Below are positions 1-64,000 of a stretch of 64,000 bases of DNA, piece by piece. The stretch comes from a virus (Duplodnaviria; Heunggongvirae; Uroviricota; Caudoviricetes): IMG/VR virus record IMGVR_UViG_3300021387_000895, positions 27,302 to 91,301 of that record. One strand, 5' to 3'. The notes below the pieces were generated by a model. It did no database searches, had not been told where the DNA came from, and saw only the letters and a list, made by a program, of their open reading frames with translations. Positions within the stretch are counted from its first letter, which is position 1, and the number at the start of each line of letters is the position of its first letter. The translations under genes were made by a program, and so were the position numbers.

Positions 1-16
1 AGAGGAGGTGCTGAAC

Positions 17-466
17 ATGCCTGCTGCATACGGTGCTTTAGCTGAGCAGACCATTCAGCCGGGTGCGTTTATGGTGTTTACATCTACGCTTATTCCCTGT
101 AAGCTCGGTCTTATTCAGCATGCGGATGAAACTCCTCTCTTTAATCTGGCTGGGAATCGTTTGAATAATAACATGTGTTGTTGCTGCAAACAGACTCCGG
201 CCACTTACATCACTTCGTTCAATGCAAATGTTGCACTTTCCCCTGAAGCTACCGTTGAACCGATTTCGGTTTCAATTACTGTTGATAGCGTTCCTTTTCC
301 TTTATCGGAGATGAACTCTACTCCAGCTGCGGTAAGTGAATTCAATCACATTGGTACTGAGATTCCGATTCCGATTCTTAATGGCTGTTGTCAAAACGTA
401 GCTATTGAGAATACCGGTACTCAGCCTATTGTGGTTAGGGCCGGCATTATTATGTTTGATCGATGA
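17..466 (+). CDS. hypothetical Cys-rich protein (possibly structural)
   Basis: ORF with AGGAGG 7 nt upstream of ATG at 17; poly-Cys (CCCC, GCC) segments; no recognisable family. Confidence 0.45.
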   Translation: MPAAYGALAEQTIQPGAFMVFTSTLIPCKLGLIQHADETPLFNLAGNRLNNNMCCCCKQTPATYITSFNANVALSPEATVEPISVSITVDSVPFPLSEMNSTPAAVSEFNHIGTEIPIPILNGCCQNVAIENTGTQPIVVRAGIIMFDR

Positions 467-484
467 TGAAAGGAGGAAATCAAA

Positions 485-964
485 ATGGCAGATATGATGA
501 AAGAAAACGAGTGCTTTCAGAAGGATTATCAGCGTCTTTATGATAAGGGTACTTGGAATAAAGACGAAATAGCCATGATGAAAGATCTCAAGAAGCTTAT
601 GTACTATAATCTGGTTATTGACGCTATGGAAAATGGCGGAAGTTACCCTGGTTCTGAGCATATGCCTGAAATGAGCTATATGCGTGGTCGTGATGCTGCT
701 ACTGGACGTTACATGTCTCGTACAATGAATAATGGTTCTGGTCTGTATTATCCTCCGTATATGGATGGTAATTCCTGGAATGGGAATAATATGAATTCCA
801 GTAATCATTATAACGATGGCATGAACATGTCTGGTCGTCGTTACTACGATAGCGAAAAGGAAAAGGCCATCCACAAGCTTCATCATATGATGGAGAATGA
901 GGATAATGCCGAAAAGAAGAATGCTCTAAAGCTAGCCGTTACGGTTCTTGAAGAGCAGAAGTAA
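485..964 (+). CDS. hypothetical protein, N/G/Y/M-rich low-complexity core
   Basis: ORF with GGAGG RBS; compositionally biased middle, charged C-terminus. Confidence 0.45.
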   Translation: MADMMKENECFQKDYQRLYDKGTWNKDEIAMMKDLKKLMYYNLVIDAMENGGSYPGSEHMPEMSYMRGRDAATGRYMSRTMNNGSGLYYPPYMDGNSWNGNNMNSSNHYNDGMNMSGRRYYDSEKEKAIHKLHHMMENEDNAEKKNALKLAVTVLEEQK

Positions 965-1034
965 GTAACTTTTGAGGGCTTGGCTCGTTGCTTATGTGAT
1001 GAGCCTGGTCCTCTATTTTTTAGAGGTGATTAGA

Positions 1035-1337
1035 ATGAACGACTCTGTTATTGTTGCGGTTCTATGCACTTTACTTGCTTCTGGCGGCTTTTGGGCACTG
1101 CTTACAAAGCTTCTTGACAAGAAAAGTGCGAAAACAAAGATGCTTCTTGGACTTGGCCATGATCGTATTATGAGCTTAGGAATGAAGTATATAAGTAATG
1201 GTCAAATCACACAGTCCGAGTATGAGAATCTTTATAAATACTTATATGAGCCTTACAAAAAGATGGGTGGAAACGGTTCTGCCGAGAGACTTATGCGCGA
1301 AGTCGATAAACTTAAGATTGTTAAGGATTCGTATTAA
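1035..1337 (+). CDS. small membrane protein, holin-like (BhlA/UviB-like topology)
   Basis: ATG at 1035 after GAGGTGA; one N-terminal TM helix then charged coiled region. Confidence 0.35.
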   Translation: MNDSVIVAVLCTLLASGGFWALLTKLLDKKSAKTKMLLGLGHDRIMSLGMKYISNGQITQSEYENLYKYLYEPYKKMGGNGSAERLMREVDKLKIVKDSY

Positions 1338-1360
1338 TAAAAATTGAGGAGGAAAGCAAT

Positions 1361-1588
1361 ATGGTATTTAGTAATACTGTTTATGATAAATTGAAGTGGA
1401 TTGCTCTTATTCTTCTCCCTGCTTTGGCAACACTGTATCTTGCATTGTCTAAGTTTTGGACTATACCTTATCCAGAGCAGATCGCTGGTACTATCATGGC
1501 CGTAGACGCATTCCTTGGCGCTATACTGCAGATCAGTACAAAGAATTATAATGATGATCAGAAGGTGCTTGAGAAAAAGGAGGGGTAA
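1361..1588 (+). CDS. putative holin (two TM helices, charged C-terminus)
   Basis: 75 aa, two hydrophobic helices then KKEG tail; GGAGGAAAG RBS. Confidence 0.45.
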   Translation: MVFSNTVYDKLKWIALILLPALATLYLALSKFWTIPYPEQIAGTIMAVDAFLGAILQISTKNYNDDQKVLEKKEG

Positions 1589-1591
1589 TCA

Positions 1592-2632
1592 ATGGCAAAT
1601 ATTGAAAATGAATTATCCCAAATGAGAACTGCCGTATATGGTGAAGACATGCGTAAAGCCATATACGATGCAATGAGAAAAATAAATGATGATATTAAAG
1701 ATGGAATAGTTAAAGAGAATCAAGGTGTTAATAACGCCGGGAAGGCACTGGTGGTGGGCGCAGACGGCAACGTGACCACCGGGGACGCGGGGATCCCGGA
1801 CGCGGTGAAGGTCTCACTGCTGGATCTGGTGCGGCATGTGGCCTACATCGACGACCAGGGGCAGAGCTACTACGACGCGCTGTATGCGGCGCTGTACTGC
1901 GGCAGCGGCGGTTATCCGAGGCTGGAGGCGGTCTACGCGCCCGGCGACCATGTGGTGTATACCGACGACGCGCTGGACACGCTGAGGCCCTATCTGACGG
2001 TCAAGCGGCGTGAGAGCGCCCAGGACAGCGGCACTGTGGTGACGGACTACACGCTGAGTGGCACACTGGTGGATGGCCTGAGCACGGTGCTGGTGCGGAA
2101 GGATGCGCTGGTGACGGCGGTGCAGGTGGAGGCGGTGGATTTCTACAATATTCCATTGCGTTCCATTGGAGATGGATCTATGTCTATGGTTGTCGCATCG
2201 GTCAACACAAACAAAGACAATGTATCGCTATATCCATCACGCTTAATGATGGATAATATTATAAATACGCGCAGAAACTTTTCTGTCACGCGAGGCAGAG
2301 CACCGTATTATTTGCGAGATCAAACGGCTGTGCCAGCACAGTATTATCCCATACCGATTCCATCTAATGCCACCAAAATAAGGATAACGATGAATCCTTC
2401 TGGATTGTACATCTTCATGCACACCGTGCCATATGATGAAACGACTGGAACATATGGCAACAATATTGCAGATAACAGAGTAACGTGGACGCAGTTGGAC
2501 AACGGTGTACTTGAAAAGGAAATTACGAATCCGGGCAATTTGTTCCTGATTCTAAATTCCAAATATGATGACGCTGGAGAATCCTACCCGACAAACCCAA
2601 ACAATGTGATCGTTGAGTTTTTGGAGGTGTGA
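1592..2632 (+). CDS. tail fiber / receptor-binding-like protein with GC-rich mosaic middle
   Basis: 346 aa; nt ~1740-2150 jump to ~65% GC inside an otherwise AT-rich gene; lies next to the tailspike gene. Confidence 0.45.
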   Translation: MANIENELSQMRTAVYGEDMRKAIYDAMRKINDDIKDGIVKENQGVNNAGKALVVGADGNVTTGDAGIPDAVKVSLLDLVRHVAYIDDQGQSYYDALYAALYCGSGGYPRLEAVYAPGDHVVYTDDALDTLRPYLTVKRRESAQDSGTVVTDYTLSGTLVDGLSTVLVRKDALVTAVQVEAVDFYNIPLRSIGDGSMSMVVASVNTNKDNVSLYPSRLMMDNIINTRRNFSVTRGRAPYYLRDQTAVPAQYYPIPIPSNATKIRITMNPSGLYIFMHTVPYDETTGTYGNNIADNRVTWTQLDNGVLEKEITNPGNLFLILNSKYDDAGESYPTNPNNVIVEFLEV

Positions 2633-2634
2633 GC

Positions 2635-3600
2635 ATGAAGGACGTCTACGATTACAGTGGTAGCAAGCTGAATATCAGCGGTTTCGCAACACCGGAAATG
2701 TATGGGGCTGTAGGTGACGGAGTGGCTGATGATACAGTAGCAATACAGAAGGCAGTACAAGATAAGCGGCTTCTATTTGGAGCCGGGAGAAAATATAAAA
2801 TTACGACGGTTGTGGTGGTTGACGAAGGCACTGTAATAGATATGAACGGTTCGACGCTAATATGTACATATAAACAGTCGTTTTTTAACTTTCATAATGG
2901 CGATAGCTACGGAGGTTATAACGGGAACGGGAATATTACAATCCGAAATGGAACCATCATCGGCGGGGCAATCGGATTTATCCATGGTAAACACATAAGG
3001 CTTGAGAACCTGATATTCCAAAACACGTTAAAAGATCACTTCATTGAAATATGTGCCTGTCGGGATTTTCGGGTGAAGGACTGTATGTTTATCGGAATGC
3101 AAAACATGACTGGACGAGCGTTGGAATACATCAACATTGACACAAACGCCAGCTATGCTGCTTTCCCACACAACAGCAGTCACCAGAGCGACGCCACATT
3201 TTACGATATGGCCACCAATGCAGACATCACAATCCAGGATTGTTATTTTGCTCCGGGAGATGGCGATTATGCATATGGATACAACGCGATCGGTGTCCAT
3301 AGCCGCAATGTGGACAACACTTATGCCGATGGGGTTGCGCTCATCAACAACACGATCAAAGGCTTTACCGGCTGCGGGCTGAGGATCAACGCCATGCGCA
3401 AGGCGTACATCGCAGGCAACAACATCATGGCCGACGGGGATGGCATCCGCGTGGGTGACGTGGCGGACTGCGACGACGTGGTAATCGTGAACAACTATGT
3501 CGAATCCGAGAACGGCCAGAAGCTGGCGGTCACCGACGGACAGTGCCCGAACTTGACGGTGGCCGGGAATGCGGCAAAGGGCGAGCGGCAGGAGTTTTAG
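2635..3600 (+). CDS. right-handed beta-helix (pectin-lyase fold) tailspike / depolymerase
   Basis: Repeated NGTIIGG / IQNT / NNTIKG / AGNNI beta-helix rungs; GC-rich 3' end (3300-3600). Confidence 0.5.
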   Translation: MKDVYDYSGSKLNISGFATPEMYGAVGDGVADDTVAIQKAVQDKRLLFGAGRKYKITTVVVVDEGTVIDMNGSTLICTYKQSFFNFHNGDSYGGYNGNGNITIRNGTIIGGAIGFIHGKHIRLENLIFQNTLKDHFIEICACRDFRVKDCMFIGMQNMTGRALEYINIDTNASYAAFPHNSSHQSDATFYDMATNADITIQDCYFAPGDGDYAYGYNAIGVHSRNVDNTYADGVALINNTIKGFTGCGLRINAMRKAYIAGNNIMADGDGIRVGDVADCDDVVIVNNYVESENGQKLAVTDGQCPNLTVAGNAAKGERQEF

Positions 3601-3644
3601 AGGTTGAACCTTTGCCCCGGAGCGTGTATAAGCGAGGTGAAAAC

Positions 3645-3737
3645 ATGATCGACTTTAACAAATACAAATTCTCGACCTCTACCCACTGGATTGCCAACAG
3701 CGGCAAGGACGAGGTCGAGGTTCACAATATGCAGTAG
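3645..3737 (+). pseudogene. remnant of an endolysin N-terminus (GC-rich donor)
   Basis: MIDFNKYKFSTSTHWIANSGKDE parallels the N-terminus of the 3809 endolysin (INFDEYLYSTGTHYISNSGKDE); ends after 30 aa. Confidence 0.4.
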
Positions 3738-3808
3738 AAGTTATGGCGTTTAACACCGTTAAGAACTAGTGTAAAATTCTAAGATGAATAGTTATAAGGA
3801 GATTAACG

Positions 3809-4831
3809 ATGAGTATAAAAATTAATTTTGATGAATATTTATATTCCACAGGCACTCACTACATCTCCAACTCTGGTAAGGATGAAAACGGCGCTTATCA
3901 TGGTGGTAAGGCTGGCGATCAGACTGGCCATGAGTGGGAATTGAAAGCTTGGTATAATCGGCCGTGGACTGTCGTTCTTAGGTATCCTGACTATGCTGTC
4001 GCCAGGAAGATTGCTAAACTTGCTATTGCCGCCGCTCTTAATAATAAGATTGGCTACGACCAGTATGAACGTACAAGCTATTGGACTCAGCTTAAGGCTG
4101 CGAAGTTTGATCCTTCCAAGATTACAACTCCTTGCGAAGACGATTGTACGGCCGGTGTCTCTGCTAATGTTCGAGCTGCTGGCTATATCTTCAATATTCA
4201 GGCTCTTAAAGACATTCCGATTTGTTCAAGTCGTGATATGAGGGCTAAGTTCACAAAGGCTGGTTTTAAGGCTCTGACAGCTTCGAAGTATTTGAGTGGC
4301 TATAATTATTTACTTCCCGGCGACATTCTCCTTTGCGAGAATCATCATGCAGCGACGAATATTACAATTGGCAGCAAAGTTGTCGAGCCTAAGATTGATG
4401 AGATCACAATCGATTTGAATGGCGAGATTCAGTCTGAAGTTGTACCAACTATCATGGGCTTTATTACCGTAAAAGGAAATTATAACGTCCGAACTGAAGC
4501 TAATAAGTCTGCTCGGTCAATCGGTGTTGCTAAGTCCGGCGAAAAGATCTCGTATCTCGGAGTAAATCAAAATGGTTGGAATGAGGTATGGTTTAGAGAA
4601 GAAGTAGGCTGGATTTCTTCTAAGGCTGGCGAAGTTAAAGAACTTAAAGGCTCACTTTTAGATGTTGTTCGTGGCAGCTGGAATGTGAGAGCCGAAGCAA
4701 ATGTTGAAAGTAAAAAGCTTGGTGTTGTCCATGCTGGAGATCAGTTGATGTCTACTGGTAAGCAAACCGATGGCTGGTACGAAGTTGAGTATAAAGACTC
4801 TACTGGCTGGGTATCCAAGAAGGCGTTTTAG
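3809..4831 (+). CDS. endolysin: cysteine-peptidase-like (NlpC/P60 or CHAP type) catalytic domain + two SH3b cell-wall-binding repeats
   Basis: Cys motif TPCEDDCTAGV and His motif LLCENHHAA; two C-terminal repeats GNYNVR..GW / GSWNVR..GW typical of SH3b. Confidence 0.55.
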   Translation: MSIKINFDEYLYSTGTHYISNSGKDENGAYHGGKAGDQTGHEWELKAWYNRPWTVVLRYPDYAVARKIAKLAIAAALNNKIGYDQYERTSYWTQLKAAKFDPSKITTPCEDDCTAGVSANVRAAGYIFNIQALKDIPICSSRDMRAKFTKAGFKALTASKYLSGYNYLLPGDILLCENHHAATNITIGSKVVEPKIDEITIDLNGEIQSEVVPTIMGFITVKGNYNVRTEANKSARSIGVAKSGEKISYLGVNQNGWNEVWFREEVGWISSKAGEVKELKGSLLDVVRGSWNVRAEANVESKKLGVVHAGDQLMSTGKQTDGWYEVEYKDSTGWVSKKAF

Positions 4832-4855
4832 TTTATCAAAGGTTGGTGGTTTCAA

Positions 4856-5101
4856 ATGATGCCAATTGATGCCAAATACTCGATTCATTCTCTTGGTAAG
4901 ACTGTAACTTTTTACGATTTGGAAGGAAACAAATTTGAAGCAACTCTCGTTGGAGTACACGTTGAATCTGAAGATATTCTCTATCAGATCCCAAGAAGTA
5001 TTGCAGATGATATTCCTCCAGGATCAATAGCGTTTACCACAGGAGGAGTCGATTCATGGCAAAAGAATTTCTCCGGAACATGGGAAGCGGTGGAAAACTA
5101 A
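4856..5101 (+). CDS. hypothetical protein
   Basis: ORF with GGTGG RBS. Confidence 0.35.
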   Translation: MMPIDAKYSIHSLGKTVTFYDLEGNKFEATLVGVHVESEDILYQIPRSIADDIPPGSIAFTTGGVDSWQKNFSGTWEAVEN

Positions 5102-5538
5102 TGGGATTAAGATCTTTAAAGAGACTTAAAGCCTTTTTTGTTGGAGATTTTTATGAGATAATACTAGGATCTAGATCAAATCGAAGTGTTGACTTTAGCG
5201 ATCCAGAGGTTTTAAAGCAAGAGTTCATTCGAGCATTTTCAAGATTCAAATATTGGAAGTGGGACCCTTTCAATTTTACAAATGAATATACATATAAAGA
5301 AATCGAAAAAGAATCTCCAAAACATGTTTTCTATAATCCTTCAATCGGAACCGAGTATCCAAATCCTTCGATAGTATTTTATAAAGATAGCGGATCGGTT
5401 TCTTATTCTGTTGAGATATACGACATTAAAAACCCAAGTGATATAGCAAAGTATTATGCCAAGAGGTTTAAGATGTCGATTAAATCAACAGAAAATATTG
5501 GTGATAACTATAAGTATTCTTATACCATGACAGTATAA
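5056..5538 (+). CDS. hypothetical protein (true start probably internal ATG ~5101)
   Basis: ORF overlapping previous; no family recognised. Confidence 0.35.
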   Translation: MAKEFLRNMGSGGKLMGLRSLKRLKAFFVGDFYEIILGSRSNRSVDFSDPEVLKQEFIRAFSRFKYWKWDPFNFTNEYTYKEIEKESPKHVFYNPSIGTEYPNPSIVFYKDSGSVSYSVEIYDIKNPSDIAKYYAKRFKMSIKSTENIGDNYKYSYTMTV

Positions 5539-5553
5539 AAGGAGGTATGTAAA

Positions 5554-5814
5554 ATGGCTAAGTACAATAGTATTAACGATGTCGTTGCTGGGCATATCAA
5601 TGCTCTGATTGAAAAGAAGGGCTATAATAAGGAAGATTATCCCTTCCAGAATGATATTAATAGCGCACTTGTCCAGCTGGCTGCGATCTATGCGAAGATT
5701 GCCGATAAGGAAGTTGCAGTGGCTGCTGATGCATTTACAATTGTTGGTGCTCTGGATGCTTTCCTGGATGTCACCGATGAAGTAATTGCTGGTGAAAATT
5801 CTTCTAATCCATAG
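5554..5814 (+). CDS. hypothetical protein
   Basis: AAGGAGG RBS before ATG at 5554. Confidence 0.4.
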   Translation: MAKYNSINDVVAGHINALIEKKGYNKEDYPFQNDINSALVQLAAIYAKIADKEVAVAADAFTIVGALDAFLDVTDEVIAGENSSNP

Positions 5815-5910
5815 CTGAATCCTGAAACCTGATAGCATTTGACTAATATGACGGGACCGTGGTATACTTGTACTGCGGTCTCGTCTTCTTATTCAAAATG
5901 GGAGGGTAGT

Positions 5911-6840
5911 ATGGAACAAGGAAGACTAGACAATTGTATTTTAGAATGGCTTGAGGATCATAAAAAGAATTCTGTAAAGGTCTTATCTTATGATAGGCTT
6001 TTGACGGCTTACAAGCTTATGCGATGTTATCCTGTTGCGAATTATCGAGTTTGCGACATGACATCAAAAGAGATTCAGAGATATTTGAATACTCTTGTTG
6101 ATGATGGGTACTCGATGTCTACGATCAAAAAGCAGTTTAATCTTATAACAGCTTATTGGAAGTGGGCAATGTCACAGGGGCTTGTTTCAAATCCATTATA
6201 TTTAGGAGTTAATTTACCGTTCGAGGAAGCCCTCCACAGCCCTTCAAAAGAGATTGAAGCTTACTCTCACAGTGAGCAAGAGAAGCTCTTAGAAAGGCTC
6301 ATAAGGCTTGAGAAAGACCAATACGGAGCTGCTGTACTAATGCTTGAAGCTGGACTTAGGGTAGGGGAGGCTTTGGCTCTAACTTGGGATGATGTCTTAT
6401 GGAACAGACGAGCTATAAGAATTCATCGTACTCTGATAAGGAAGTCTTCTGAACCTATTACTTACGTTCAAGACAGTCCGAAAAGTAAGAAGAGCAAACG
6501 AACGATCCCGCTTAGTGATACGGCTATGGAGGTTCTTTCGAAGTTAAAAGTTCGTAAAACCGGATGCCGATTCATCTTCTGCGAGGATCAACACAGCAAA
6601 ATGCCATACAGCTACTCGTCAGTCGAGTTTCATATAAGGCATTTGTGTAAAGATTTGGTTATTCCTTACAAAGGACTTCATGCTTTCAGGCATACGTTCG
6701 CGACGAACTGCTACGAGCGAGGTTGTGATGTTAAGATTTTGTCAAAACTGCTCGGGCACGCAAATGTTGCAATAACATACAACACATACATCCATTTATA
6801 CGGAGATGCTCTTGAAGAAATGCGAAAGGTGATTGGGTAA
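5911..6840 (+). CDS. int: tyrosine integrase / site-specific recombinase
   Basis: ATG at 5911 after GGGAGGG; C-terminal catalytic motifs LRVGEALAL..., HAFRHTFAT, LGHANVAITYNTYIH (R..HxxR..Y). Confidence 0.85.
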   Translation: MEQGRLDNCILEWLEDHKKNSVKVLSYDRLLTAYKLMRCYPVANYRVCDMTSKEIQRYLNTLVDDGYSMSTIKKQFNLITAYWKWAMSQGLVSNPLYLGVNLPFEEALHSPSKEIEAYSHSEQEKLLERLIRLEKDQYGAAVLMLEAGLRVGEALALTWDDVLWNRRAIRIHRTLIRKSSEPITYVQDSPKSKKSKRTIPLSDTAMEVLSKLKVRKTGCRFIFCEDQHSKMPYSYSSVEFHIRHLCKDLVIPYKGLHAFRHTFATNCYERGCDVKILSKLLGHANVAITYNTYIHLYGDALEEMRKVIG

Positions 6841-7042
6841 ATCCTACAAAAAGAATGAGGCCCACATTATGCAGACCTCATAAAATATGAAGGTGCCACC
6901 CGGATTCGGACCGGGGAATGAAGGTTTTGCAGACCTTTATTGTACAACATGTAGCATAATTCAAAATGGCAGTACACCATATATAGTGGATTAAGTACTT
7001 AAGACGAGACCGCATTGTTAAGATATATTTAATACATAATAT

Positions 7043-7120
7043 GCTAACGTAGTTCAAATGGTAGAACAGCCCTTTTCAGAGTCCAGGGTCGAGGTACTGG
7101 TTCGAGTCCAGTCGTTAGTA
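7043..7120 (+). tRNA. tRNA-like element with atypical (11-nt) anticodon loop
   Basis: Acceptor GCTAACG/CGTTAGT, D arm GTTC-AAATGGTA-GAAC, T arm ACTGG-TTCGAGT-CCAGT fold; anticodon stem GCCCT/AGGGT encloses 11 nt; 200 bp downstream of integrase. Confidence 0.4.
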
Positions 7121-7188
7121 ATGAAAACCAATCGATAGGCTGGATCGATTTGCCGCTAGGTTTTTGCTAAAATTTTAGAGGCGGCACA

Positions 7189-7228
7189 TTCGCGTTTCAA
7201 ACAGGCTCCTTAGTAGAAAGGAGTGTAA
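7189..7228 (+). promoter_or_regulatory. conserved early-cassette motif TTCGCGTTTCAAACA..CTCCTTAGTAGAAAGGAG (representative copy)
   Basis: Same motif recurs ~30 times upstream of small ORFs; contains the RBS of the downstream gene. Confidence 0.5.
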
Positions 7229-7231
7229 GGC

Positions 7232-7495
7232 ATGCTGGGTGATTATGGATACATTAATGTCAGGAGTATTACTTCACGAAAAGATTGTCGACAAATTAAG
7301 AACCGAATTAGAGACGAATTACTTTGGAGAGACCGGAAACTAAACGAAGAAATAATTCATAAGGTTTTCACGAAGTGCATAGACCAACTTGAAAAAGTCG
7401 GGTATCTAACAGAAACGACAATAAGAGATTTTGTTGATGAAGAAGTTCTTGGCAAAGATTCTAAGTATGCTTTTTGGTTTGAAACTCTATCTTAA
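7232..7495 (+). CDS. hypothetical small protein
   Basis: Preceded by early-cassette motif. Confidence 0.45.
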   Translation: MLGDYGYINVRSITSRKDCRQIKNRIRDELLWRDRKLNEEIIHKVFTKCIDQLEKVGYLTETTIRDFVDEEVLGKDSKYAFWFETLS

Positions 7496-7552
7496 CAAGA
7501 AAGCTCTGATTAATTTCAGGGCTTTAATTTTTTATTTAAGGAGGAATTAGAT

Positions 7553-8062
7553 GTGACTAATTTCAAGCTCGAGGCCCCGTGGTACACTTACAATAAGATG
7601 GTTACAGAACTATTTGAAAGCGATCAGAATGTGGAAGTCGGTGATATTGTCGATACTGGCGATGGTACTTTTTCTATGACCATCAGCGTTTCTGATCATG
7701 ACAAGTTTGTTGCTCTGGATCGTGTTATGCCCAATAAAGTTGAATTTGGTAATATTATCCTGAATATTATTGTTAAGTCTGCCGAGAGCAATGATGTGAT
7801 CGAAGATTATGTTGAACTTTACAAGACTATTTTTAAGAATAACCTGCTTGTCAAGGATTTCAAGGTTACCACTGACTTTGCAGGATCTACTCATTGCTTT
7901 GTTCGGTTTTGGCCGGAAGTTGTACAATTTTTTAACGACAATACTTCCGACTATGACGGTAATTGGTCTGGCCTTGCTCAGGATATTGCGAAGGAAATCT
8001 TTGCAGATTGTCCGGCTGGTATTCACTTCTGCACAGCTAGTATCAAGGAAAATGAAGCTTAA
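7553..8062 (+). CDS. hypothetical protein (GTG start)
   Basis: AGGAGG 7 nt upstream of GTG; preceded by hairpin + TTTAATTTTTT element shared with 59.3 kb. Confidence 0.45.
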   Translation: MTNFKLEAPWYTYNKMVTELFESDQNVEVGDIVDTGDGTFSMTISVSDHDKFVALDRVMPNKVEFGNIILNIIVKSAESNDVIEDYVELYKTIFKNNLLVKDFKVTTDFAGSTHCFVRFWPEVVQFFNDNTSDYDGNWSGLAQDIAKEIFADCPAGIHFCTASIKENEA

Positions 8063-8113
8063 GATTAAAAAGAAGTGATATTCAATAGGTAGTCTTTTAT
8101 GGCTACCTAATTT

Positions 8114-8187
8114 GCTCGATTAGCTCAGTAGGTTAGAGCAGCGGCCTTATAAGCCGTGTGTCCTGAGTTCGAGTCTCAGATCGAGTA
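8114..8187 (+). tRNA. tRNA-Ile (anticodon TAT/UAU), AUA-decoding
   Basis: Full cloverleaf: acceptor GCTCGAT/ATCGAGT, D stem GCTC/GAGC, anticodon stem GCGGC/GCCGT loop CTTATAA, T arm CTGAG-TTCGAGT-CTCAG. Confidence 0.6.
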
Positions 8188-8233
8188 TTATATTCGCATT
8201 TCAAACAGCCTCCTTAGTAGAAAGGAGTGATCT

Positions 8234-8455
8234 ATGATGTCTAAACTCATCGGAATGCTTTTTAAGGTTAAAACTGATGAGAAAGCTTTTGAAGAACTAA
8301 GAGATAGGACTAAAGACATGCCAAAGGAGTACCAAGATAGAGCTGAGTTTACTTTAGCTTGCTATGGTTTATTGAAATTCGGTATGGCGGCACTTATAAG
8401 TTCGGATTTGAAAAAGAAAAATGTTGAGGATTCCATGGAAAGTGCGGCATTATAG
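8234..8455 (+). CDS. hypothetical small protein
   Basis: Early-cassette motif upstream; terminator hairpin downstream. Confidence 0.45.
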   Translation: MMSKLIGMLFKVKTDEKAFEELRDRTKDMPKEYQDRAEFTLACYGLLKFGMAALISSDLKKKNVEDSMESAAL

Positions 8456-8576
8456 AAAATCTAATAAGCTGAGATAACACTCGGCTTATTTTTTTTCGCG
8501 ATTAAAACACATTTCTTAATAGATATAGGAGTCTTGATTTATTCAAGGCTCTATAGTTTTTAGGAGGTGTGATCCG

Positions 8577-8822
8577 ATGAATAATGTTAAGATTTCAACT
8601 AGCTGTCTTGAGGGATATTTGACTAAGGCTTGTCCGCATTGCGTGTTTTGGAGTGATGGAGACAACGAATTGCTCAACGAGGTCTATCCGATGGCATATG
8701 GAAGAGAATTAGGAGCTTCAGTAGGATGTTGCATTCCGGCTCCAATTGGCGACTGTCCTTTCTTCAGAGTATATGTCGAAGGTAAGAATGTACTCGCTCA
8801 ACTGGTTCAATCCCAGGAGTGA
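8577..8822 (+). CDS. hypothetical Cys-rich small protein
   Basis: GGAGG RBS; C..CPHC..CC motifs. Confidence 0.4.
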   Translation: MNNVKISTSCLEGYLTKACPHCVFWSDGDNELLNEVYPMAYGRELGASVGCCIPAPIGDCPFFRVYVEGKNVLAQLVQSQE

Positions 8823-8971
8823 GCAAAATCAAAATGGGATTAAATAGTGCTGTTTTCATTTGATTACCTCCTTTCTTGATATACGATATATAGAGGTTCC
8901 CATGATGCCGACCACATTGCACTAGCCTCTATACATATTAATAGTGATTGGATATCAGGAGGTTATTAACA

Positions 8972-9205
8972 ATGAATAATGAAGAATTAAAAGGCGATTC
9001 GAAGTGTTTTGTCATTTTTTATCGCTATGGATTAAGTTGCGGTGTAACAAAAGTCACAAGAAAATTAGATGATGCTATACGATTTATCTCTGAAATAACT
9101 GGAATTTCGCGTTTCGAAATAAATCAGAATTATGAAATGGGAAAGACTGAGGTGTTTGATAGATATAATACATTTTATTATATAGAAGAGCACCCATTAG
9201 ATTAA
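8972..9205 (+). CDS. hypothetical small protein
   Basis: AGGAGG RBS before ATG 8972. Confidence 0.4.
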   Translation: MNNEELKGDSKCFVIFYRYGLSCGVTKVTRKLDDAIRFISEITGISRFEINQNYEMGKTEVFDRYNTFYYIEEHPLD

Positions 9206-9272
9206 TCATAATTAAAGATTATTCGCGATTAAAACAAGCTGTATAATGATAAATTTAAAGGAGGGTTTTCTC

Positions 9273-9431
9273 ATGAAGAAATTCTTTGTTGAAGCTCGAA
9301 CCGATAATGGTATGAGGATTACGATGACTGTGCCTGCCGAAACCGCTATGGATGCGGAATTGGAAGCCGGTCGCAAGCTCATTTCCACCGGGTTCAAGAA
9401 CTCGAAGATTTCCATCGTGGAAGAGTGCTAA
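9273..9431 (+). CDS. hypothetical small protein (52 aa)
   Basis: AAAGGAGGG RBS; followed by strong terminator hairpin + T10. Confidence 0.4.
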   Translation: MKKFFVEARTDNGMRITMTVPAETAMDAELEAGRKLISTGFKNSKISIVEEC

Positions 9432-9480
9432 GGTTTATCGACCGATAATAAGGGATGCATAACGTGTCCCTTATTTTTTT
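9432..9480 (+). terminator. rho-independent terminator
   Basis: AAGGGATGCATAACGTGTCCCTTATTTTTTTTTT hairpin + T-run. Confidence 0.6.
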
Positions 9481-9483
9481 TTT

Positions 9484-9570
9484 GCCGGTATGGTGGAATG
9501 GCAGACACCTCAGACTTAAAATCTGATGTCCTTATTGGGCGTGCGGGTTCAAGTCCCGCTACCGGTACCA
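9484..9570 (+). tRNA. tRNA-Leu (anticodon TAA/UAA), class II with long variable arm, encoded CCA
   Basis: Acceptor GCCGGTA/TACCGGT + A + CCA; anticodon stem TCAGA/TCTGA loop CTTAAAA; T arm GCGGG-TTCAAGT-CCCGC. Confidence 0.75.
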
Positions 9571-9687
9571 GCTGTGTACACGGCTACAGACAAAACCTTA
9601 TGGGGCCGTTTGGTTTTTGCGAAGGTTTTTAGGGGCGGCCCTTTCGCATTTGAAACACACTCCTTAATAGAAAGGAGATGTATTTGA

Positions 9688-9948
9688 ATGTTTATTTCGA
9701 CTAAGGACTTTTATGAGGTTGGATGGTTCATATTTAAGCTGTTTGCTTTATATCGAATCATAAGTGCCGCATGCGCGATTGCGTTTTCTCTGATCAAGTT
9801 TAAACTTGATGAAAAGAAAGATCGCAAGACTGTATCGGCACCTGAGGTTCGTAAGGAAATACTCAATAAGATTGAGCCGCTTCACCTCGCATACAAACGT
9901 AGTGAGATTGGGTTCAAGACTGACACTATAAGGGATAAAGAGCCTTAA
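9688..9948 (+). CDS. hypothetical small membrane protein
   Basis: Early motif upstream; hydrophobic N-terminus. Confidence 0.4.
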   Translation: MFISTKDFYEVGWFIFKLFALYRIISAACAIAFSLIKFKLDEKKDRKTVSAPEVRKEILNKIEPLHLAYKRSEIGFKTDTIRDKEP

Positions 9949-10010
9949 TTACAAGGCTCTAATTATTTTCGCGTTTCAAACATACTCCTTAGTAGAAAGG
10001 AGGTGTTAGT

Positions 10011-10220
10011 ATGAAAAAGTGCATATTAATCGGTATAGGCATTGTGTCAGCAATAATAGGCTATTGCATCGCTGATGATCTTCCGTTCATAAAAAGATTG
10101 AATGAAGAAAACGAACGTCGTGAAAAAGATATTGATGAACAATTAAATCGAGTTATGGACGGCATTCATGACGATATGGTAAAACGCGCTCATGACGCTT
10201 TGAACCGGAATAATAAGTAG
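10011..10220 (+). CDS. hypothetical small membrane protein
   Basis: Early motif + GGAGG RBS. Confidence 0.4.
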   Translation: MKKCILIGIGIVSAIIGYCIADDLPFIKRLNEENERREKDIDEQLNRVMDGIHDDMVKRAHDALNRNNK

Positions 10221-10314
10221 TTTTGGATTGACAAAGACGATGATATTTATCAGTGGTTACATGCCACTGATTTTTTCGCGTTTCAAACATACTCCTTAGT
10301 AGAAAGGAGATGGT

Positions 10315-10650
10315 ATGATGTATACCGATTTTCAGAAGCACATAGTTAAGGCTTTGACCACGCTCTTTTATCAGGACACAGAAGGTATTGATTATTGGGA
10401 TGTAGACGGTAATAGTAGATGGATCGATATAACAGACAAAGAGGATGGCACTTTATATGAGCTTTCTCATAAGGTTATAGATAACCATGATTATATTGTC
10501 GTTAGAGCGATCGATTATGACGAATTTGGCGAAGCTGTAAGCGTGAAAGATATTTGCTATCTATTGGTATATAGAGAAAGAGCATGCTGGGATTTGATTA
10601 ACTACGCTGTGATGATCGAATGCATTATTACGAATCAAATTAGTTTGTGA
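10315..10650 (+). CDS. hypothetical protein
   Basis: Early motif upstream. Confidence 0.4.
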   Translation: MMYTDFQKHIVKALTTLFYQDTEGIDYWDVDGNSRWIDITDKEDGTLYELSHKVIDNHDYIVVRAIDYDEFGEAVSVKDICYLLVYRERACWDLINYAVMIECIITNQISL

Positions 10651-10732
10651 CTATATGAAATAAGCGGCAATTACAAGTCGCTTATTTTTTCGCGGTTGAA
10701 ACAGTCTATTTATTGAAAGGGGGATGCTTACT

Positions 10733-10996
10733 ATGATGAAGCAACCGTATTCAATAGAGGAGCTGAGATGGTTTCTCAAGATGCTTAATATTTCTATGGC
10801 TACACTTGGGCAATGGTGCGGATTAACCAGACAAGCCGTAAGTAATTTATTCAATGGACGTGCAAACGATAATTGTGTGTTTAAACACAGACTGCTGTTT
10901 ACCTACATAATCAATGATTATATTACTAATGATTTGAATGGGGATGTCGCATCGCTTTATGCTATAGTGAAAGCTAGGATGGATCAAAAATATTAA
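10733..10996 (+). CDS. hypothetical protein (possible HTH)
   Basis: Early motif variant upstream. Confidence 0.35.
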   Translation: MMKQPYSIEELRWFLKMLNISMATLGQWCGLTRQAVSNLFNGRANDNCVFKHRLLFTYIINDYITNDLNGDVASLYAIVKARMDQKY

Positions 10997-11066
10997 TGGA
11001 GAGTTTTCTACTCTCCTCTATTTTTCGCATTTGAAACAAGCATTTTCATGAAGGAGGTAAGTAAAA

Positions 11067-11411
11067 ATGTTTTGTGAAAACGTGTTAGATGAGATTTATG
11101 GTCCCGTCAATCTTAGTGAGTTCAACAAATTAGTTGAGCTTGTTAAAGCTGAAGGAATACCCTATGAAACTCGTTCACGACTTGGCGGAATGCAGATGAT
11201 GATTCCAACCATCGATGCTTACGTTAATGAGACCGATGAAAGAAGAATTTCCATCGTCTTGTTTAACGGATGCTATGGTGGTGAGAATGGTCTCATGAAG
11301 ATCTTTGCGCCAGGTCTTAATAAAGGGGTTGAGGGATTCTTGAATGCTGAGCAAGCTCTTGATTACATCAAGGACACTAGGGCTGGGATCTCAAGAGGAT
11401 CTATCGGATAA
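11067..11411 (+). CDS. hypothetical protein
   Basis: Early motif + AAGGAGG RBS. Confidence 0.4.
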   Translation: MFCENVLDEIYGPVNLSEFNKLVELVKAEGIPYETRSRLGGMQMMIPTIDAYVNETDERRISIVLFNGCYGGENGLMKIFAPGLNKGVEGFLNAEQALDYIKDTRAGISRGSIG

Positions 11412-11531
11412 AGATATAACGACCGATTTCAAAATGGCAGTTGAAACATACTGCTATTTTTTTTGTTTTTAATCATTGCGCTGATAGTGGTATTATGCTA
11501 TAATAAACAAAACTATAAAGGAGGTTCTTTT

Positions 11532-11780
11532 ATGGAACAAGAAGCAACTAAGAGGGTTCGCAGGAGCAAGGAAGAGATCGTATCTGACAAGATCAGTAAG
11601 CTAGAGGCGAAGATCGCTGAATATGAGAGTAAGATCGCTTCGGCAAAGAAAGAGATCGAGGAATTAAAGAACCCTGTTTCAACAGTTAAGATGAAAGATA
11701 TTAAGGATAAGATTACTGAATACGATCTTTCTCTTGATGACGTCATGAAGGCAATTGAGAAAATGGGTAATAAGAAGTGA
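11532..11780 (+). CDS. hypothetical coiled-coil protein
   Basis: AAGGAGG RBS; terminator downstream. Confidence 0.4.
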   Translation: MEQEATKRVRRSKEEIVSDKISKLEAKIAEYESKIASAKKEIEELKNPVSTVKMKDIKDKITEYDLSLDDVMKAIEKMGNKK

Positions 11781-11859
11781 TACTGAGCCTGTCCTAGTGA
11801 CAGGTTCTTTTTTTTTCGCGTCATAAACATTCTATTTAATAGAGAATAGAAAGGAGATT

Positions 11860-12135
11860 ATGACTATGAAACTGTTTGGAACTAAGAAAGTTAAGGTTTA
11901 TACGACCGACTTTGAATCTCTGTCGATATTCGATCATCTTTGTGTTGAAAGTGACATGTATGAAGATTATGTTACTTCCGCTTGGGACGAAGAAGAAGGA
12001 TATTACAAGATTTACCAGGTTAAGTGGAACATGCTTACTAAGTTTACCAAGGCTGTTGAGAAGTATAACAATCTGGCTAGGCTCGATCATGTGAAGGAAA
12101 GAATAAATAGGATTGAGATGAAAATACTGGGCTAA
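11860..12135 (+). CDS. hypothetical protein
   Basis: Early motif variant. Confidence 0.4.
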   Translation: MTMKLFGTKKVKVYTTDFESLSIFDHLCVESDMYEDYVTSAWDEEEGYYKIYQVKWNMLTKFTKAVEKYNNLARLDHVKERINRIEMKILG

Positions 12136-12201
12136 TCACAGCTCAGTATTTTTTTTTTCGCGTTATAAACATTCCTTATGATGAAAAGGAGGTTTATAAC
12201 T

Positions 12202-12399
12202 ATGAAGGAAGCTATTTTTGACTATGCGGTAATTGTTATACTCGTTGCGATGATGCTGGCTATGTTCGGATCGTGCGTGATGCTATTAATTAACTGGAAC
12301 ATCGAATGGTTCACAATAACAGCTGTTACAACTGCAATCGGTACCGTATTCTGTGTGCTTACTTCTGATAAGCAGCCAGACGAAGACGAAGAGCCTTGA
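12202..12399 (+). CDS. hypothetical small membrane protein
   Basis: AAAGGAGG RBS; two hydrophobic helices. Confidence 0.4.
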   Translation: MKEAIFDYAVIVILVAMMLAMFGSCVMLLINWNIEWFTITAVTTAIGTVFCVLTSDKQPDEDEEP

Positions 12400-12497
12400 T
12401 TAGTACAAGGCTCTAATTTTTCGCATTTGAAACAGACGGCTTAGTAGAAGTGAGAAGCATAATCTCATTTCTATATATTTTTAGGAGGTAGTTAATC

Positions 12498-12731
12498 ATG
12501 TCTAAGATCGGAGATGCTATTATTACTGGCGAAGAATTGTTCCAGAAGGCAAGAGAAAAGTATGAGATGTTTGATAACTTTGTAAGAAATGGTGTCAATA
12601 CTACGGAGAACGCATGCAAGAGGGCGTTCTGGCTTGGAGAACTTGTAGCTTATGCAAAGTATAATGAGAAGATATTCGGTGATGAAGAGCTTAGACGAAT
12701 TGTTGAACAAGAAATGAATATAGAACTATAA
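12498..12731 (+). CDS. hypothetical protein
   Basis: AGGAGG RBS. Confidence 0.4.
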   Translation: MSKIGDAIITGEELFQKAREKYEMFDNFVRNGVNTTENACKRAFWLGELVAYAKYNEKIFGDEELRRIVEQEMNIEL

Positions 12732-12858
12732 GTCTTATTAAGCTCGTGGTTAAAACTACGGGCTTATTTTTTTTTTCAAAATGGCATTAATTCTCGCATT
12801 CAAAACACGCTAGTTAATGAAGCTCATTGAGCTGTCAAATAATTGAAAGGAGTATATT

Positions 12859-13161
12859 ATGAGCAAAACATTTGCTTTGGGCAGAGTGGTTGCCACAAGG
12901 CGTGTTTGGGAATTAATTGAGTCTGATGAATACTTTTCTAGGTTTGTTTCGCTCTGTATGAGTCGTTATGTTACTAACGATTGGGGCGAGCTGCACCCAG
13001 ATGATTGGAAACTGAACGATGAGTCAGTAGATGGAGAAGGTAGGATATTAGCTTCTTATCCTCTTCCTGAAACAATAGAAGTAGAGTTTGAAGATAAATT
13101 ATGGATCATAACGGAATGGGATCGTTCGGTTACGACAATTCTATTCCCTGGAGATTATTAA
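12859..13161 (+). CDS. hypothetical protein
   Basis: AAGGAG RBS. Confidence 0.4.
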   Translation: MSKTFALGRVVATRRVWELIESDEYFSRFVSLCMSRYVTNDWGELHPDDWKLNDESVDGEGRILASYPLPETIEVEFEDKLWIITEWDRSVTTILFPGDY

Positions 13162-13267
13162 GCTGACTGACTAGTTTGTTGGCAGCTCAGTGGGTTTCGC
13201 CTTTGAAACAAATTATTATTTTTTTTTCGCATCATGAACATGCTATTATATGAAAGGAGTGTTTTAA

Positions 13268-13564
13268 ATGAAATGGATTAAGGATTTTTACGAACCGATT
13301 ACCAGAACATATTTCAAAGCTCCAATTTCGATTGTGAATTCACGTATCAATGAATTCAATAAACTGCTGAAGAATAAGTCTATAAGTATGAATGACGCGC
13401 TGGAGTTATGTGGACTTCCAAGGCTTGATGATAGCAGAGCAGACAAGAAACTGAACGTGAGCAGAGTGGAAGTTGGGCTACCTAAGATTGGTAAAGAAAG
13501 GGGGTACTATTATTATCCGATCGTTTATTACGACCGTGAGAACCAAGAGGTTAAGTTGGGTTGA
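13268..13564 (+). CDS. hypothetical protein
   Basis: Early motif variant (CGCATCATGAACA). Confidence 0.4.
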   Translation: MKWIKDFYEPITRTYFKAPISIVNSRINEFNKLLKNKSISMNDALELCGLPRLDDSRADKKLNVSRVEVGLPKIGKERGYYYYPIVYYDRENQEVKLG

Positions 13565-13628
13565 GCAATCAACCCTTCTTTTTTTTTTCGCATCATGAAC
13601 ATACTATTATATGAAAGGAGGTGCTGAC

Positions 13629-27162: not shown

Positions 27163-27367
27163 TCTTGTTTGCGATGTATGCGGACGAGAAATCAGGAGAA
27201 ACTATGAACATTATATTTTTCCTTTGAGGTTCTATCTTGTAGTGCCGTCGCAATACGTTTATATAAGGGAAAAAGACGGAAAGAAACCTCGTGACATGTG
27301 CTTAAAATGTTTTGAAGATTTCAAGAAATTTGTAAAGGAAAAGAGGGAGGAAGCACAAAATGAATAA
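27146..27367 (+). CDS. hypothetical zinc-ribbon protein (CDVCG...CLKCF)
   Basis: AAGGAGG RBS. Confidence 0.4.
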   Translation: MSRNNNLVCDVCGREIRRNYEHYIFPLRFYLVVPSQYVYIREKDGKKPRDMCLKCFEDFKKFVKEKREEAQNE

Positions 27368-63063: not shown

Positions 63064-64000
63064 ATGCTTTATGACGAATACGGGATTTACAAAGGAATGA
63101 TATCCGACAATGCTAAATCTCGACTGTCACACTACGGCACTCCAAGACACTCTGGCAGATATCCTTGGGGATCTGGTGAGAATCCGTATCAGCGCAATGC
63201 GGATTTTTTGGGTCAGATCGAAAAGATGCGAAAGCAGGGTGTCAGCGAAAAAGATATTGCCGCTTCAATGGGTATCAACACCAGCGAGCTGAGAAAGCGC
63301 AAGTCCCTGGCCAGGGCTGAGAATCGCGCATATTTATCAGCCGAAGCAAAGCGGCTCAAGGAAAAGGGAATGTCTACGTCCGCGATTGCAAGGCGGATGG
63401 AGATGAATGAATCGTCTGTTCGTTTGCTCCTTGACGAAGGCGTGAATGAACGCATGAGTTCCACCGCAAAGAATGCTGCTGTTCTCAAGAGCCGTGTCAA
63501 TGAGTATGACTACATTGACGTCGGCAAGGGATCTGAGGAGTATCTCGGGATATCTTCAACGAGCATGAATAATGCGCTTAAGATATTGGAGAATGAAGGC
63601 TATACGATTCACGAGGTTCCTGTGGAGCAGATGGGTACCGGCAAGATCACCAAGATCAAGGTGCTTGCCAAGCCCGGTGTAGAATGGCGAGAGGTTGCCC
63701 AGCATAAGGGTGACATTAAACCGGTTCAGGATCTCGGTTTATATTCTGAGGATGGCGGAGAGACGATAAGAAAGATCGAAAAGCCGGTGAGCATCGATCC
63801 TAAGCGGGTTGATATTTGCTATGCTGAAGATGGCGGCGAAGATAAGGATGGACTGATCGAGCTCAGGCGCGGCGTGGATGATATTTCACTCGGCAATGCC
63901 AGGTATGCTCAGGTTCGAATTCTTGTTGACGACAGCCATTATATTAAAGGTATGGCTGCCTATTCTGACGACCTGCCTCCGGGAATTGATATTCGGTTCA
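63064..64000 (+). CDS. HTH-containing protein, 3' end outside window (GC-richer than neighbours)
   Basis: Open frame from ATG 63064 to window end; two HTH-like segments (ASMGINTSELRKRKSLA, STSAIARRMEMNESSVRLLL); not in ORF track because no stop reached. Confidence 0.45.
   Translation, partial: MLYDEYGIYKGMISDNAKSRLSHYGTPRHSGRYPWGSGENPYQRNADFLGQIEKMRKQGVSEKDIAASMGINTSELRKRKSLARAENRAYLSAEAKRLKEKGMSTSAIARRMEMNESSVRLLLDEGVNERMSSTAKNAAVLKSRVNEYDYIDVGKGSEEYLGISSTSMNNALKILENEGYTIHEVPVEQMGTGKITKIKVLAKPGVEWREVAQHKGDIKPVQDLGLYSEDGGETIRKIEKPVSIDPKRVDICYAEDGGEDKDGLIELRRGVDDISLGNARYAQVRILVDDSHYIKGMAAYSDDLPPGIDIRF

Follow-up and report, generated by a model that had tools for sequence, protein, structure and literature searches.

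Positions 1733-3713 of the DNA analysed here are most probably a foreign two-gene cassette for host recognition, imported into a slot of the resident genome through a left junction (J1) and a right junction (J4). The DNA, referred to as the window, is a stretch of 64,000 nucleotides (nt) covering positions 27,302 to 91,301 of IMG/VR record IMGVR_UViG_3300021387_000895. It is part of a ~94.5-kb temperate rumen phage with a guanine-plus-cytosine (GC) content of 40%. The locus runs in the order holin, fibre protein of 346 amino acids (aa), β-helix protein of 321 aa, 30-codon endolysin stub, and resident ELLD endolysin. Its composition, its collinearity with other phages, the positions of its junctions, and its segment-wise divergence are direct observations. 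The direction and recency of the transfer, the sequence of events, and what the proteins do are inferred from them.

Composition of the two GC-rich patches

The overall GC content of the window is 39.7%, and not ~36% as given in a preliminary description of the sequence. In 100-nt sliding windows, GC content rises to 58-69% at ~1701-2200 and to 52-64% at ~3251-3650. Patch 1 (1734-2143) has a GC content of 66.8% (z = 8.1) and patch 2 (3291-3725) of 56.8% (z = 5.3), with 60.2% in the core of patch 2 (3340-3600). The z values refer to windows of the same length elsewhere in the 64 kb, which have a mean GC content of 39.3% and a standard deviation of 3.4%, and none of which exceeds 51%. The sliding profile and this size-matched comparison confirm the two GC-elevated patches of the preliminary description and a composition that is not uniform. 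The next-highest values, 48-51%, are found at the right end of the window (~63100-63700) and in its first 100 nt, far below both patches.

The GC excess of the patches is located at synonymous positions. The GC content at first, second, and third codon positions (GC1, GC2, and GC3) is 0.71, 0.42, and 0.87 in patch 1, and 0.58, 0.39, and 0.82 in the in-frame segment 3289-3597 of patch 2. The codon-usage comparison proposed in the preliminary description separates both patches from the resident genes: the GC3 of the 64 other open reading frames (ORFs) is 0.39 ± 0.07, with a maximum of 0.55. The endolysin stub has a GC3 of 0.78.

The boundaries had been described as abrupt. Those of patch 1 are, being resolved to ~10 nt on each side, but the left edge of patch 2 is gradual. 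There, GC content rises across ~3200-3400, and the identity to relatives of high GC content jumps upward at ~3330-3350. At the right edge of patch 2, the composition ends at ~3650 and donor-type homology continues to 3713.

Collinearity with rumen phages of higher GC content

Positions 1733-3713 align as a single 1985-bp block, with 74.6% identity, to the rumen contigs L003-5 (59% GC; L numbers denote the loci retrieved). There, a 321-aa protein comes after a 570-aa fibre, and an ELLD endolysin begins 13 nt further on. The order fibre, β-helix, endolysin is also present in L169-L172. Both patches are 85-92% identical in nucleotide sequence to the homologous segments of 59-66% GC rumen phage contigs. 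This identity and the high-GC codon composition support the transfer from a higher-GC phage suggested in the preliminary description. However, the foreign material appears to be the whole of 1733-3713, collinear with the donor-type arrangement, rather than two islands. The label "receptor-binding modules" does not fit the GC-rich parts either, which are the conserved stem of the fibre and the last coils of the β-helix; the fibre head and the helix body are native-like in composition.

Adjacent segments of the block diverge discordantly from the same contigs, L003 and L006, with a synonymous divergence (dS) of 0.4, of 1.1-1.2, or at saturation. The stem (1733-2143) is 86% identical to L003 in nucleotides and 91% in amino acids, with a dS of 0.45 (range for the stem, 0.43-0.45). 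L095, a contig of a rumen metagenome-assembled genome (MAG) with 63% GC, matches exactly 1733-2141 (85% nt, 88% aa) and has no match beyond. The fibre head (2144-2629) is 71% identical to L003 and 70% to L006 in nucleotides, and 64-65% in amino acids, with a dS of 1.1-1.2. The helix body (2635-3288) shows 65% identity to L003/L006 and 65% amino acid identity, and its synonymous sites are saturated (proportion of synonymous differences, 0.82-0.87). The last coils (3346-3597) are 90% identical to L003 and 88.5% to L006 in nucleotides, with a dS of 0.39-0.49. The stub and its ribosome-binding site (RBS) are 89.7% identical over 78 nt to L003 6095-6172, which comprises the RBS and the start of the ELLD endolysin gene.

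The GC3 of the stem matches the backgrounds of L003, L095, and L006 (0.82-0.95), unlike that of the window. Substitutions in the stem on the window lineage comprise 9 GC-to-AT and 10 AT-to-GC changes. Because they carry no AT bias, the stem has probably spent little time in a 40% GC genome.

All the relatives recovered come from sheep or cattle rumen. Host assignment returned six genome matches, all of them rumen MAG contigs with 43-57% identity and none closely related; they belong to Clostridiales, Lachnospiraceae, Blautia, Ructibacterium, and one Paludibacteraceae bin.

Junctions

J1 is positioned at 1732/1733, at the conserved motif AGKALVVGxDGxVTTG directly after the native 47-aa anchor of the fibre. 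The window matches its sibling L092 up to GTTAAAGAGAATCAA and then, beginning with the first codon of AGKALVVGADGNVTTG, the high-GC versions of L003 and L095. L092 retains a low-GC copy of the motif. The second junction (J2, ~2143-2150) is at a domain boundary. All carriers are near-identical through VQVEAVDFYN and diverge right after; the break in similarity after VDFYN is common to L003, L095, L009, and L006. The third junction (J3, ~3330-3350) is within the continuous β-helix, where identity to L003/L006 rises from ~65% to >90%.

J4 is positioned at 3713/3714. Codons 1-23 of the stub encode a peptide identical at 22 of 23 residues to the start of the L003 ELLD endolysin, the product of a gene with PF25309 and SH3_3 domains. 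The homology stops after GGCAAGGACGAG (codon 23) and is followed by seven unrelated codons and a stop codon. Compared with the resident endolysin, 14 of 22 residues are identical. Two claims of the preliminary description are thereby substantiated, namely that the stub mirrors the N-terminus of the resident endolysin in GC-rich codons and that a recombination junction falls inside a donor endolysin gene. With an ORF that stops after 30 codons and homology that ends at codon 23, the stub has no catalytic domain. It is a gene fragment, not an endolysin.

A 32-nt element lies between the β-helix gene and the stub. It is 94% identical to the sequence directly after the stop codon of a GDPD gene in L009 (10082-10113) and L010 (6122-6153), and 91% identical to the sequence in the same position in L095 (7020-7051). 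The element follows the stop codons of unrelated genes in three phage backgrounds, that of the β-helix gene here and that of GDPD genes elsewhere. A search of IMG/VR with an exact 27-nt degenerate pattern of the element found no match. A sigma-70 promoter scan did not call the element because the last base of its second hexamer is G. The element could be a promoter or a recombination linker, and it was presumably imported along with the cassette block.

Proposed history of the locus

In the history that we propose, the ~47-codon fibre anchor would stay lineage-specific and everything distal to it would be exchanged. The cassette, made up of the fibre stem and head and the 321-aa β-helix protein, would have been imported from a type found in 59-66% GC rumen phages. 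At the left joint, J1, a homeologous crossover would have taken place in the AGKALVVGxDGxVTTG motif. The right joint, J4, would be an illegitimate join 69 nt into the donor endolysin gene, which would have left the 23-codon stub, the donor RBS, and the 32-nt donor element upstream of the intact resident endolysin. The import was probably recent, because the stem and the last coils retain the donor GC3 (0.82-0.87) without AT-biased drift. The interior would either have been low in GC3 already in the donor or, alternatively, have entered through J2 and J3 in a second double crossover.

Several points weigh against this history. No donor nearer than a dS of ~0.4 is found among the relatives, and the actual parent is unsampled. 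The spacer 3714-3808 has no match in any fetched locus except the identical assemblies L001/L002. J3 is inside a continuous fold and not at a module boundary, as ordinary homologous recombination between alleles could produce, and this position is compatible with more than one order of events. Only assemblies from a single series of sheep-rumen biosamples (SAMN02144230, SRR873601) contain the exact mosaic; the three of them therefore do not count as independent. The history would also require phages of 40% GC and of 59-66% GC to have met in one cell.

Low-GC3 interior and alternative explanations

The interior of the cassette is not GC-rich. The GC3 values of the fibre head (0.44) and the helix body (0.47) are within the resident range, and 23% of background chunks reach the value of the head. 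Relatives of the cassette share this feature. The fibre heads of L003 (4635-5120), L006 (7519-8004), L095 (5442-5924), and L009 (8481-8996) have a GC3 of 0.39-0.54, compared with 0.82-0.95 for their backgrounds. The heads in the 56-60% GC contigs L113, L125, and L132 have a GC3 of 0.34-0.36. The distal fibre and the complete helix of L171 (0.38-0.62) are beside an endolysin at 0.80-0.92. The distal fibre domain after the stem is low in GC3 (0.2-0.55) in every surveyed background, including phages of 56-68% GC. High GC in the stem and low GC in the interior are thus normal for a donor cassette among these carriers of fibre and β-helix genes. A single import, through J1 and J4, of a cassette that was already mosaic is preferred for this reason. 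We put the chance that the interior was already low in GC3 in the donor at about even, and prefer this origin because the relatives in high-GC phages also carry low-GC3 interiors.

A step in the reverse direction is observed in L169/L170 (5001-5966, contig of 49% GC). The GC3 of their helix is 0.58-0.68 over the first 200 codons and 0.44-0.32 over the last 100, suggesting that crossovers inside the helix recur.

It is possible, though somewhat unlikely, that a resident low-GC pair of fibre and β-helix genes was instead converted twice by high-GC phage DNA. The stem would have been replaced via J1 and J2, and the region from the last coils to the endolysin start via J3, by homologous recombination, and J4, by illegitimate recombination. 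The resident-like GC3 of the interior and the saturation of its synonymous divergence from all high-GC relatives are in line with two conversions, yet its encoded sequence is nearer to the L003/L006 alleles (65% aa) than to low-GC prophage alleles (46-49%). Low-GC phages with fibre and helix pairs of native composition do exist (L094 and L096), but the backbone relatives L012 and L092 have one fibre gene and no β-helix gene in the slot. The position of J3, in the fold and in register, is as expected between two alleles. However, cassettes with a high stem and a low head are usual in high-GC carriers, and J2 may predate this lineage. The number of crossovers does not distinguish the two models, with four in total in each.

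We also considered an assembly chimera, in which reads of a low-GC phage and of co-occurring high-GC phages were joined at shared words. Phages with related cassettes (L003-5, L007-8, and L092) were indeed recovered in the same study, the three assemblies share a single biosample series, and exact words of 29-51 nt are shared with co-occurring phages inside the stem and the terminal coils. But none of the shared words extends across J1 or J4. At J1, 12 nt have no match in either type of parent, and the same holds for the 95 nt that follow J4. Four switches would be needed in 2 kb, all in frame, and both full-length proteins are modelled confidently across J2 and J3 (predicted local distance difference test (pLDDT) scores, 86 and 92). 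The three assembly pipelines gave sequences 100% identical over 7-8 kb, and a comparable joint from low to high GC at the J1 motif was assembled independently in two other samples (L092 and L093). In addition, the interior has no relative of >66% aa identity anywhere, so it does not derive from a sampled co-occurring phage. A chimera is very unlikely.

Extremely improbable is an intrinsic constraint, by which protein domains or a function of the nucleic acid (homology handles, RNA structure) would require the GC content. Consistent with such a constraint, the stem has a high GC content at background values of 38%, 51%, 59%, 63%, and 66% GC. However, the excess is synonymous (GC2 of 0.42 and GC3 of 0.87 in patch 1), and synonymous sites are not conserved among the carriers (dS ~0.4). 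Stem homologues of low GC content exist elsewhere (L094, 46% GC; L096, 39% GC), which shows that the composition is not dictated by the encoded protein. The difference between stem and background GC content averages 0.00 over the 39 loci with enough flank, among which the window phage is an extreme outlier (+0.27). The low-GC homologues, the dS, and the 39-locus survey lead us to reject this explanation.

We likewise reject, as exceedingly improbable, a diversity-generating retroelement target or other templated hypervariation, for which only the location in a fibre gene speaks, since the 64 kb contain no second copy (template repeat) of either patch, and the patches are conserved rather than variable gene parts.

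The variable slot in relatives

The two genes of unusual composition are located between the holin and the endolysin. The holin belongs to the resident backbone and borders the variable locus on the left, and the resident endolysin borders it on the right. The holin is conserved in the backbone relatives L012 (79% aa), L009 (62%), and L092. The anchor (aa 1-47) is 93.6% identical in amino acids to the N-terminus of P0029, a protein on L092 and L093 whose distal part differs, and 54% identical to the N-terminus of the unrelated fibre of L012.

A comparison for alternative fibre alleles, also proposed in the preliminary description, reveals a completely different fibre in a backbone relative. 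L012 (IMG/VR, 44% GC) has the same upstream genes, the holin, and the anchor motif, followed by an unrelated 575-aa fibre. An ELLD endolysin, 62% identical in amino acids to the resident one, begins 20 nt after this fibre. In L092 and L093, two other sheep-rumen assemblies, the anchor is followed by DNA of 54-68% GC, with a different distal part and a non-ELLD neighbour. In L009-11 (51% GC), the synteny of holin and integrase is kept, with several other genes in the slot.

P0029 (537-1601 in L092; also in L093) contains the motif AGKAL(V/I)(V/I)GxDGxVTxG twice, first as a low-GC and then as a high-GC copy, followed by a high-GC distal part. This distal part looks like an independent import at the same joint. 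A GC profile shared by related phages had been named as an argument against transfer. L092/L093 and L009-11 do show low-to-high GC jumps of their own at the same motif or domain, but their cargo differs, so the transfer is not contradicted. Because the siblings jump in GC content at the same place with other cargo, the pattern indicates repeated import at a recombination hotspot. The slot between holin and endolysin would hold the host-recognition gene or genes in this phage lineage, and the parts distal to the anchor would be exchangeable.

Fibre and β-helix proteins

The 346-aa fibre protein matched no Pfam or PHROG family, and a query of IMG/VR with this single protein returned no relative. 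Its stem is common to dozens of fibre proteins with differing distal domains. In the AlphaFold2 model, the pLDDT is 86 overall and 93-98 in the distal domain. A Foldseek search of the PDB with the whole model gave weak matches only (template modelling score, 0.12-0.23), to β-sandwich proteins and carbohydrate-binding modules. The distal domain is probably the receptor-contacting head, and it may bind glycan.

The 321-aa protein P0071 matches the tailspike family phrog_2234 (E = 1e-30), covering only profile positions 170-518 of 757. It scores below the Pfam cut-offs for PF12708 (19.9 bits against 27) and PF12218 (20 against 26.3). Its AlphaFold2 model is one continuous right-handed β-helix (pLDDT, 92; predicted template modelling score, 0.90). 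The Foldseek matches are PfbA (E = 1e-12) and the tailspikes of Geobacillus virus E2 (ORF18), CBA120, Det7, and HK620. In the model, the helix starts at about residue 28, and neither the model nor the PHROG coverage shows an N-terminal virion-anchor domain. Therefore, the name "tailspike" for this modelled protein is provisional. P0071 is a candidate polysaccharide-binding or polysaccharide-degrading protein. The ~320-aa β-helix format is retained in >100 homologues, and the gene is directly after the fibre gene in the loci examined. One possibility is docking of the anchor-less β-helix protein on the fibre stem, with the two GC-rich patches encoding a co-adapted contact pair.

Features of the locus and of the early-gene region

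The features of the locus are collected in Table 1. A megablast of window positions 1-8000 against 50,697 GenBank phages gave no match, and a terminator scan of 1200-4200 found none.

Table 1 Features of the host-recognition locus and its neighbours, in window coordinates.
Feature	Position	Strand	Remarks
Dp-1-type holin	1361-1588	+	PF16938 (E = 2.3e-24), phrog_881; GC 40%, GC3 0.40
Fibre gene, 346 aa	1592-2632	+	Relatives are modular fibre-like proteins
Resident fibre N-terminal anchor, aa 1-47	1592-1732	+	GC 31%, GC3 0.21
Patch 1, conserved fibre "stem", aa 48-184	1733-2143	+	Starts AGKALVVGADGNVTTG, ends VQVEAVDFYN
Distal C-terminal fibre domain, aa 185-346	2144-2632	+	GC 42%, GC3 0.44; β-sandwich
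β-helix protein P0071, 321 aa	2635-3600	+	Called product; ATG at 2635
Helix body, first ~235 codons	2635-3340	+	GC3 0.47; native-like composition
Patch 2a, last coils of the same β-helix	3341-3600	+	GC3 0.82 (3289-3597)
32-nt intergenic element GGTTGAACCTTTGCCCCGGAGCGTGTATAAG	3600-3631	+	TTGAAC, 17 nt, TATAAG
Putative donor RBS and first 23 codons of donor ELLD endolysin	3632-3713	+	GC3 0.78; homology to L003
Stub ORF, 30 codons, MIDFNKYKFSTSTHWIANSGKDEVEVHNMQ	3645-3737	+	Ends 71 nt before the resident endolysin ATG (3809)
Low-GC spacer	3714-3808	+	GC 24-39%; last 7 codons and stop of the stub; resident endolysin RBS AAGGAG
Resident endolysin, ELLD and two SH3_3	3809-4831	+	PF25309 (E = 5.5e-60), PF08239 (E = 3e-18); GC3 0.39
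Integrase	5839-6840		Downstream of the endolysin

Further to the right, a ~45-nt intergenic element, TTTTCGCGTTTCAAACAnnCTCCTTAGTAGAAAGGAG, occurs no fewer than 14 times within positions 7187-13620, and every copy stops a few bases short of a start codon on the + strand. An inverted repeat in the element, CTCCTT...AAGGAG, would pair the Shine-Dalgarno sequence with an anti-Shine-Dalgarno sequence. The repeated ~45-nt element may therefore control early genes. Three tRNA genes are located among the early genes (7042-7121, 8113-8188, and 9484-9570). In that order, they are tRNA-Ile(TAT), tRNA-Leu(TAA), and an unusual call whose anticodon has 2 nt. The codons read by tRNA-Ile and tRNA-Leu are AT-rich, as would suit a host of low GC content.

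Discussion

It is classical phage biology that the distal modules of fibres are exchanged at conserved motifs while lineage-specific anchors are kept, as known from P2, Mu, P1, lambda, and the T-even phages. Tail-fibre mosaicism between unrelated phages was reportedly described by Haggard-Ljungquist and colleagues in 1992, by Sandmeier in 1994, and by Tetart and colleagues in 1998. The locus resembles these cases, in which crossovers cluster at short conserved motifs, in its discordant segments and in its lineage-specific N-terminus, the presumed site of attachment to the virion, with exchanged distal parts. Of its own junctions, J1 is at such a motif and J2 at a domain boundary, whereas J3 is within a fold and J4 is illegitimate. 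It differs from them in two respects. The partners here are 20-28 GC points apart, so that the provenance of a segment is readable from its codon composition, and the exchange extends to a second gene and the opening codons of a lysis gene. The detection of horizontally acquired DNA by its composition, and its later amelioration, is said to go back to Lawrence and Ochman in 1997. As in that approach, atypical GC3 marks a recent import here, and the missing AT-biased drift is the argument for recency; unlike in that approach, it is applied at sub-gene scale within a phage genome.

A multi-gene recognition module, consisting of a fibre and a partner gene, is shared among distantly related Alteromonas phages (Gonzalez-Serrano et al. 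2023, PMC10579305). The unit likewise moves between otherwise unrelated phages, and both homologous and illegitimate recombination are invoked. Those phages infect one host genus and are similar in composition, and no scar gene fragment is described in the relevant passages, whereas the module in the rumen phage is internally mosaic and its illegitimate joint is preserved. Klebsiella phages with branched receptor-binding proteins have an architecture of an anchor and exchangeable depolymerases or receptor-binding proteins (PMC13579863). The conserved N-terminal anchor, the swappable distal domain, and the β-helix enzyme beside the fibre in such an architecture resemble the present locus, but the 321-aa β-helix protein here has no anchor domain of its own.

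The locus is ordinary phage mosaicism that is unusually legible, and no new mechanism is revealed by it. It is legible because a gap of 20-28 GC points labels the segments and because the illegitimate right joint is preserved as the stub. A broader reading, speculative and rather unlikely, is that the cassette is a shared "plug-in" unit of host recognition that moves both ways among 38-66% GC rumen phages via fixed joints, namely the AGKALVVG motif, the VDFYN boundary, and the start of the endolysin gene. If so, compositionally distant lineages, perhaps of different host families, would regularly recombine in one cell, and the distal fibre would be low in GC3 everywhere through continual re-import from a low-GC pool.

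The locus provides a base-resolved record of the rebuilding of host recognition in a temperate rumen phage, namely of the part that was kept (the 47-aa anchor), of the joints that were used, and of the leftovers of an illegitimate join. Rumen phages up to 28 GC points apart appear to draw on one pool of fibre and β-helix segments. This is relevant to the prediction of host range from metagenomes and to the design of chimeric receptor-binding proteins at natural joints.

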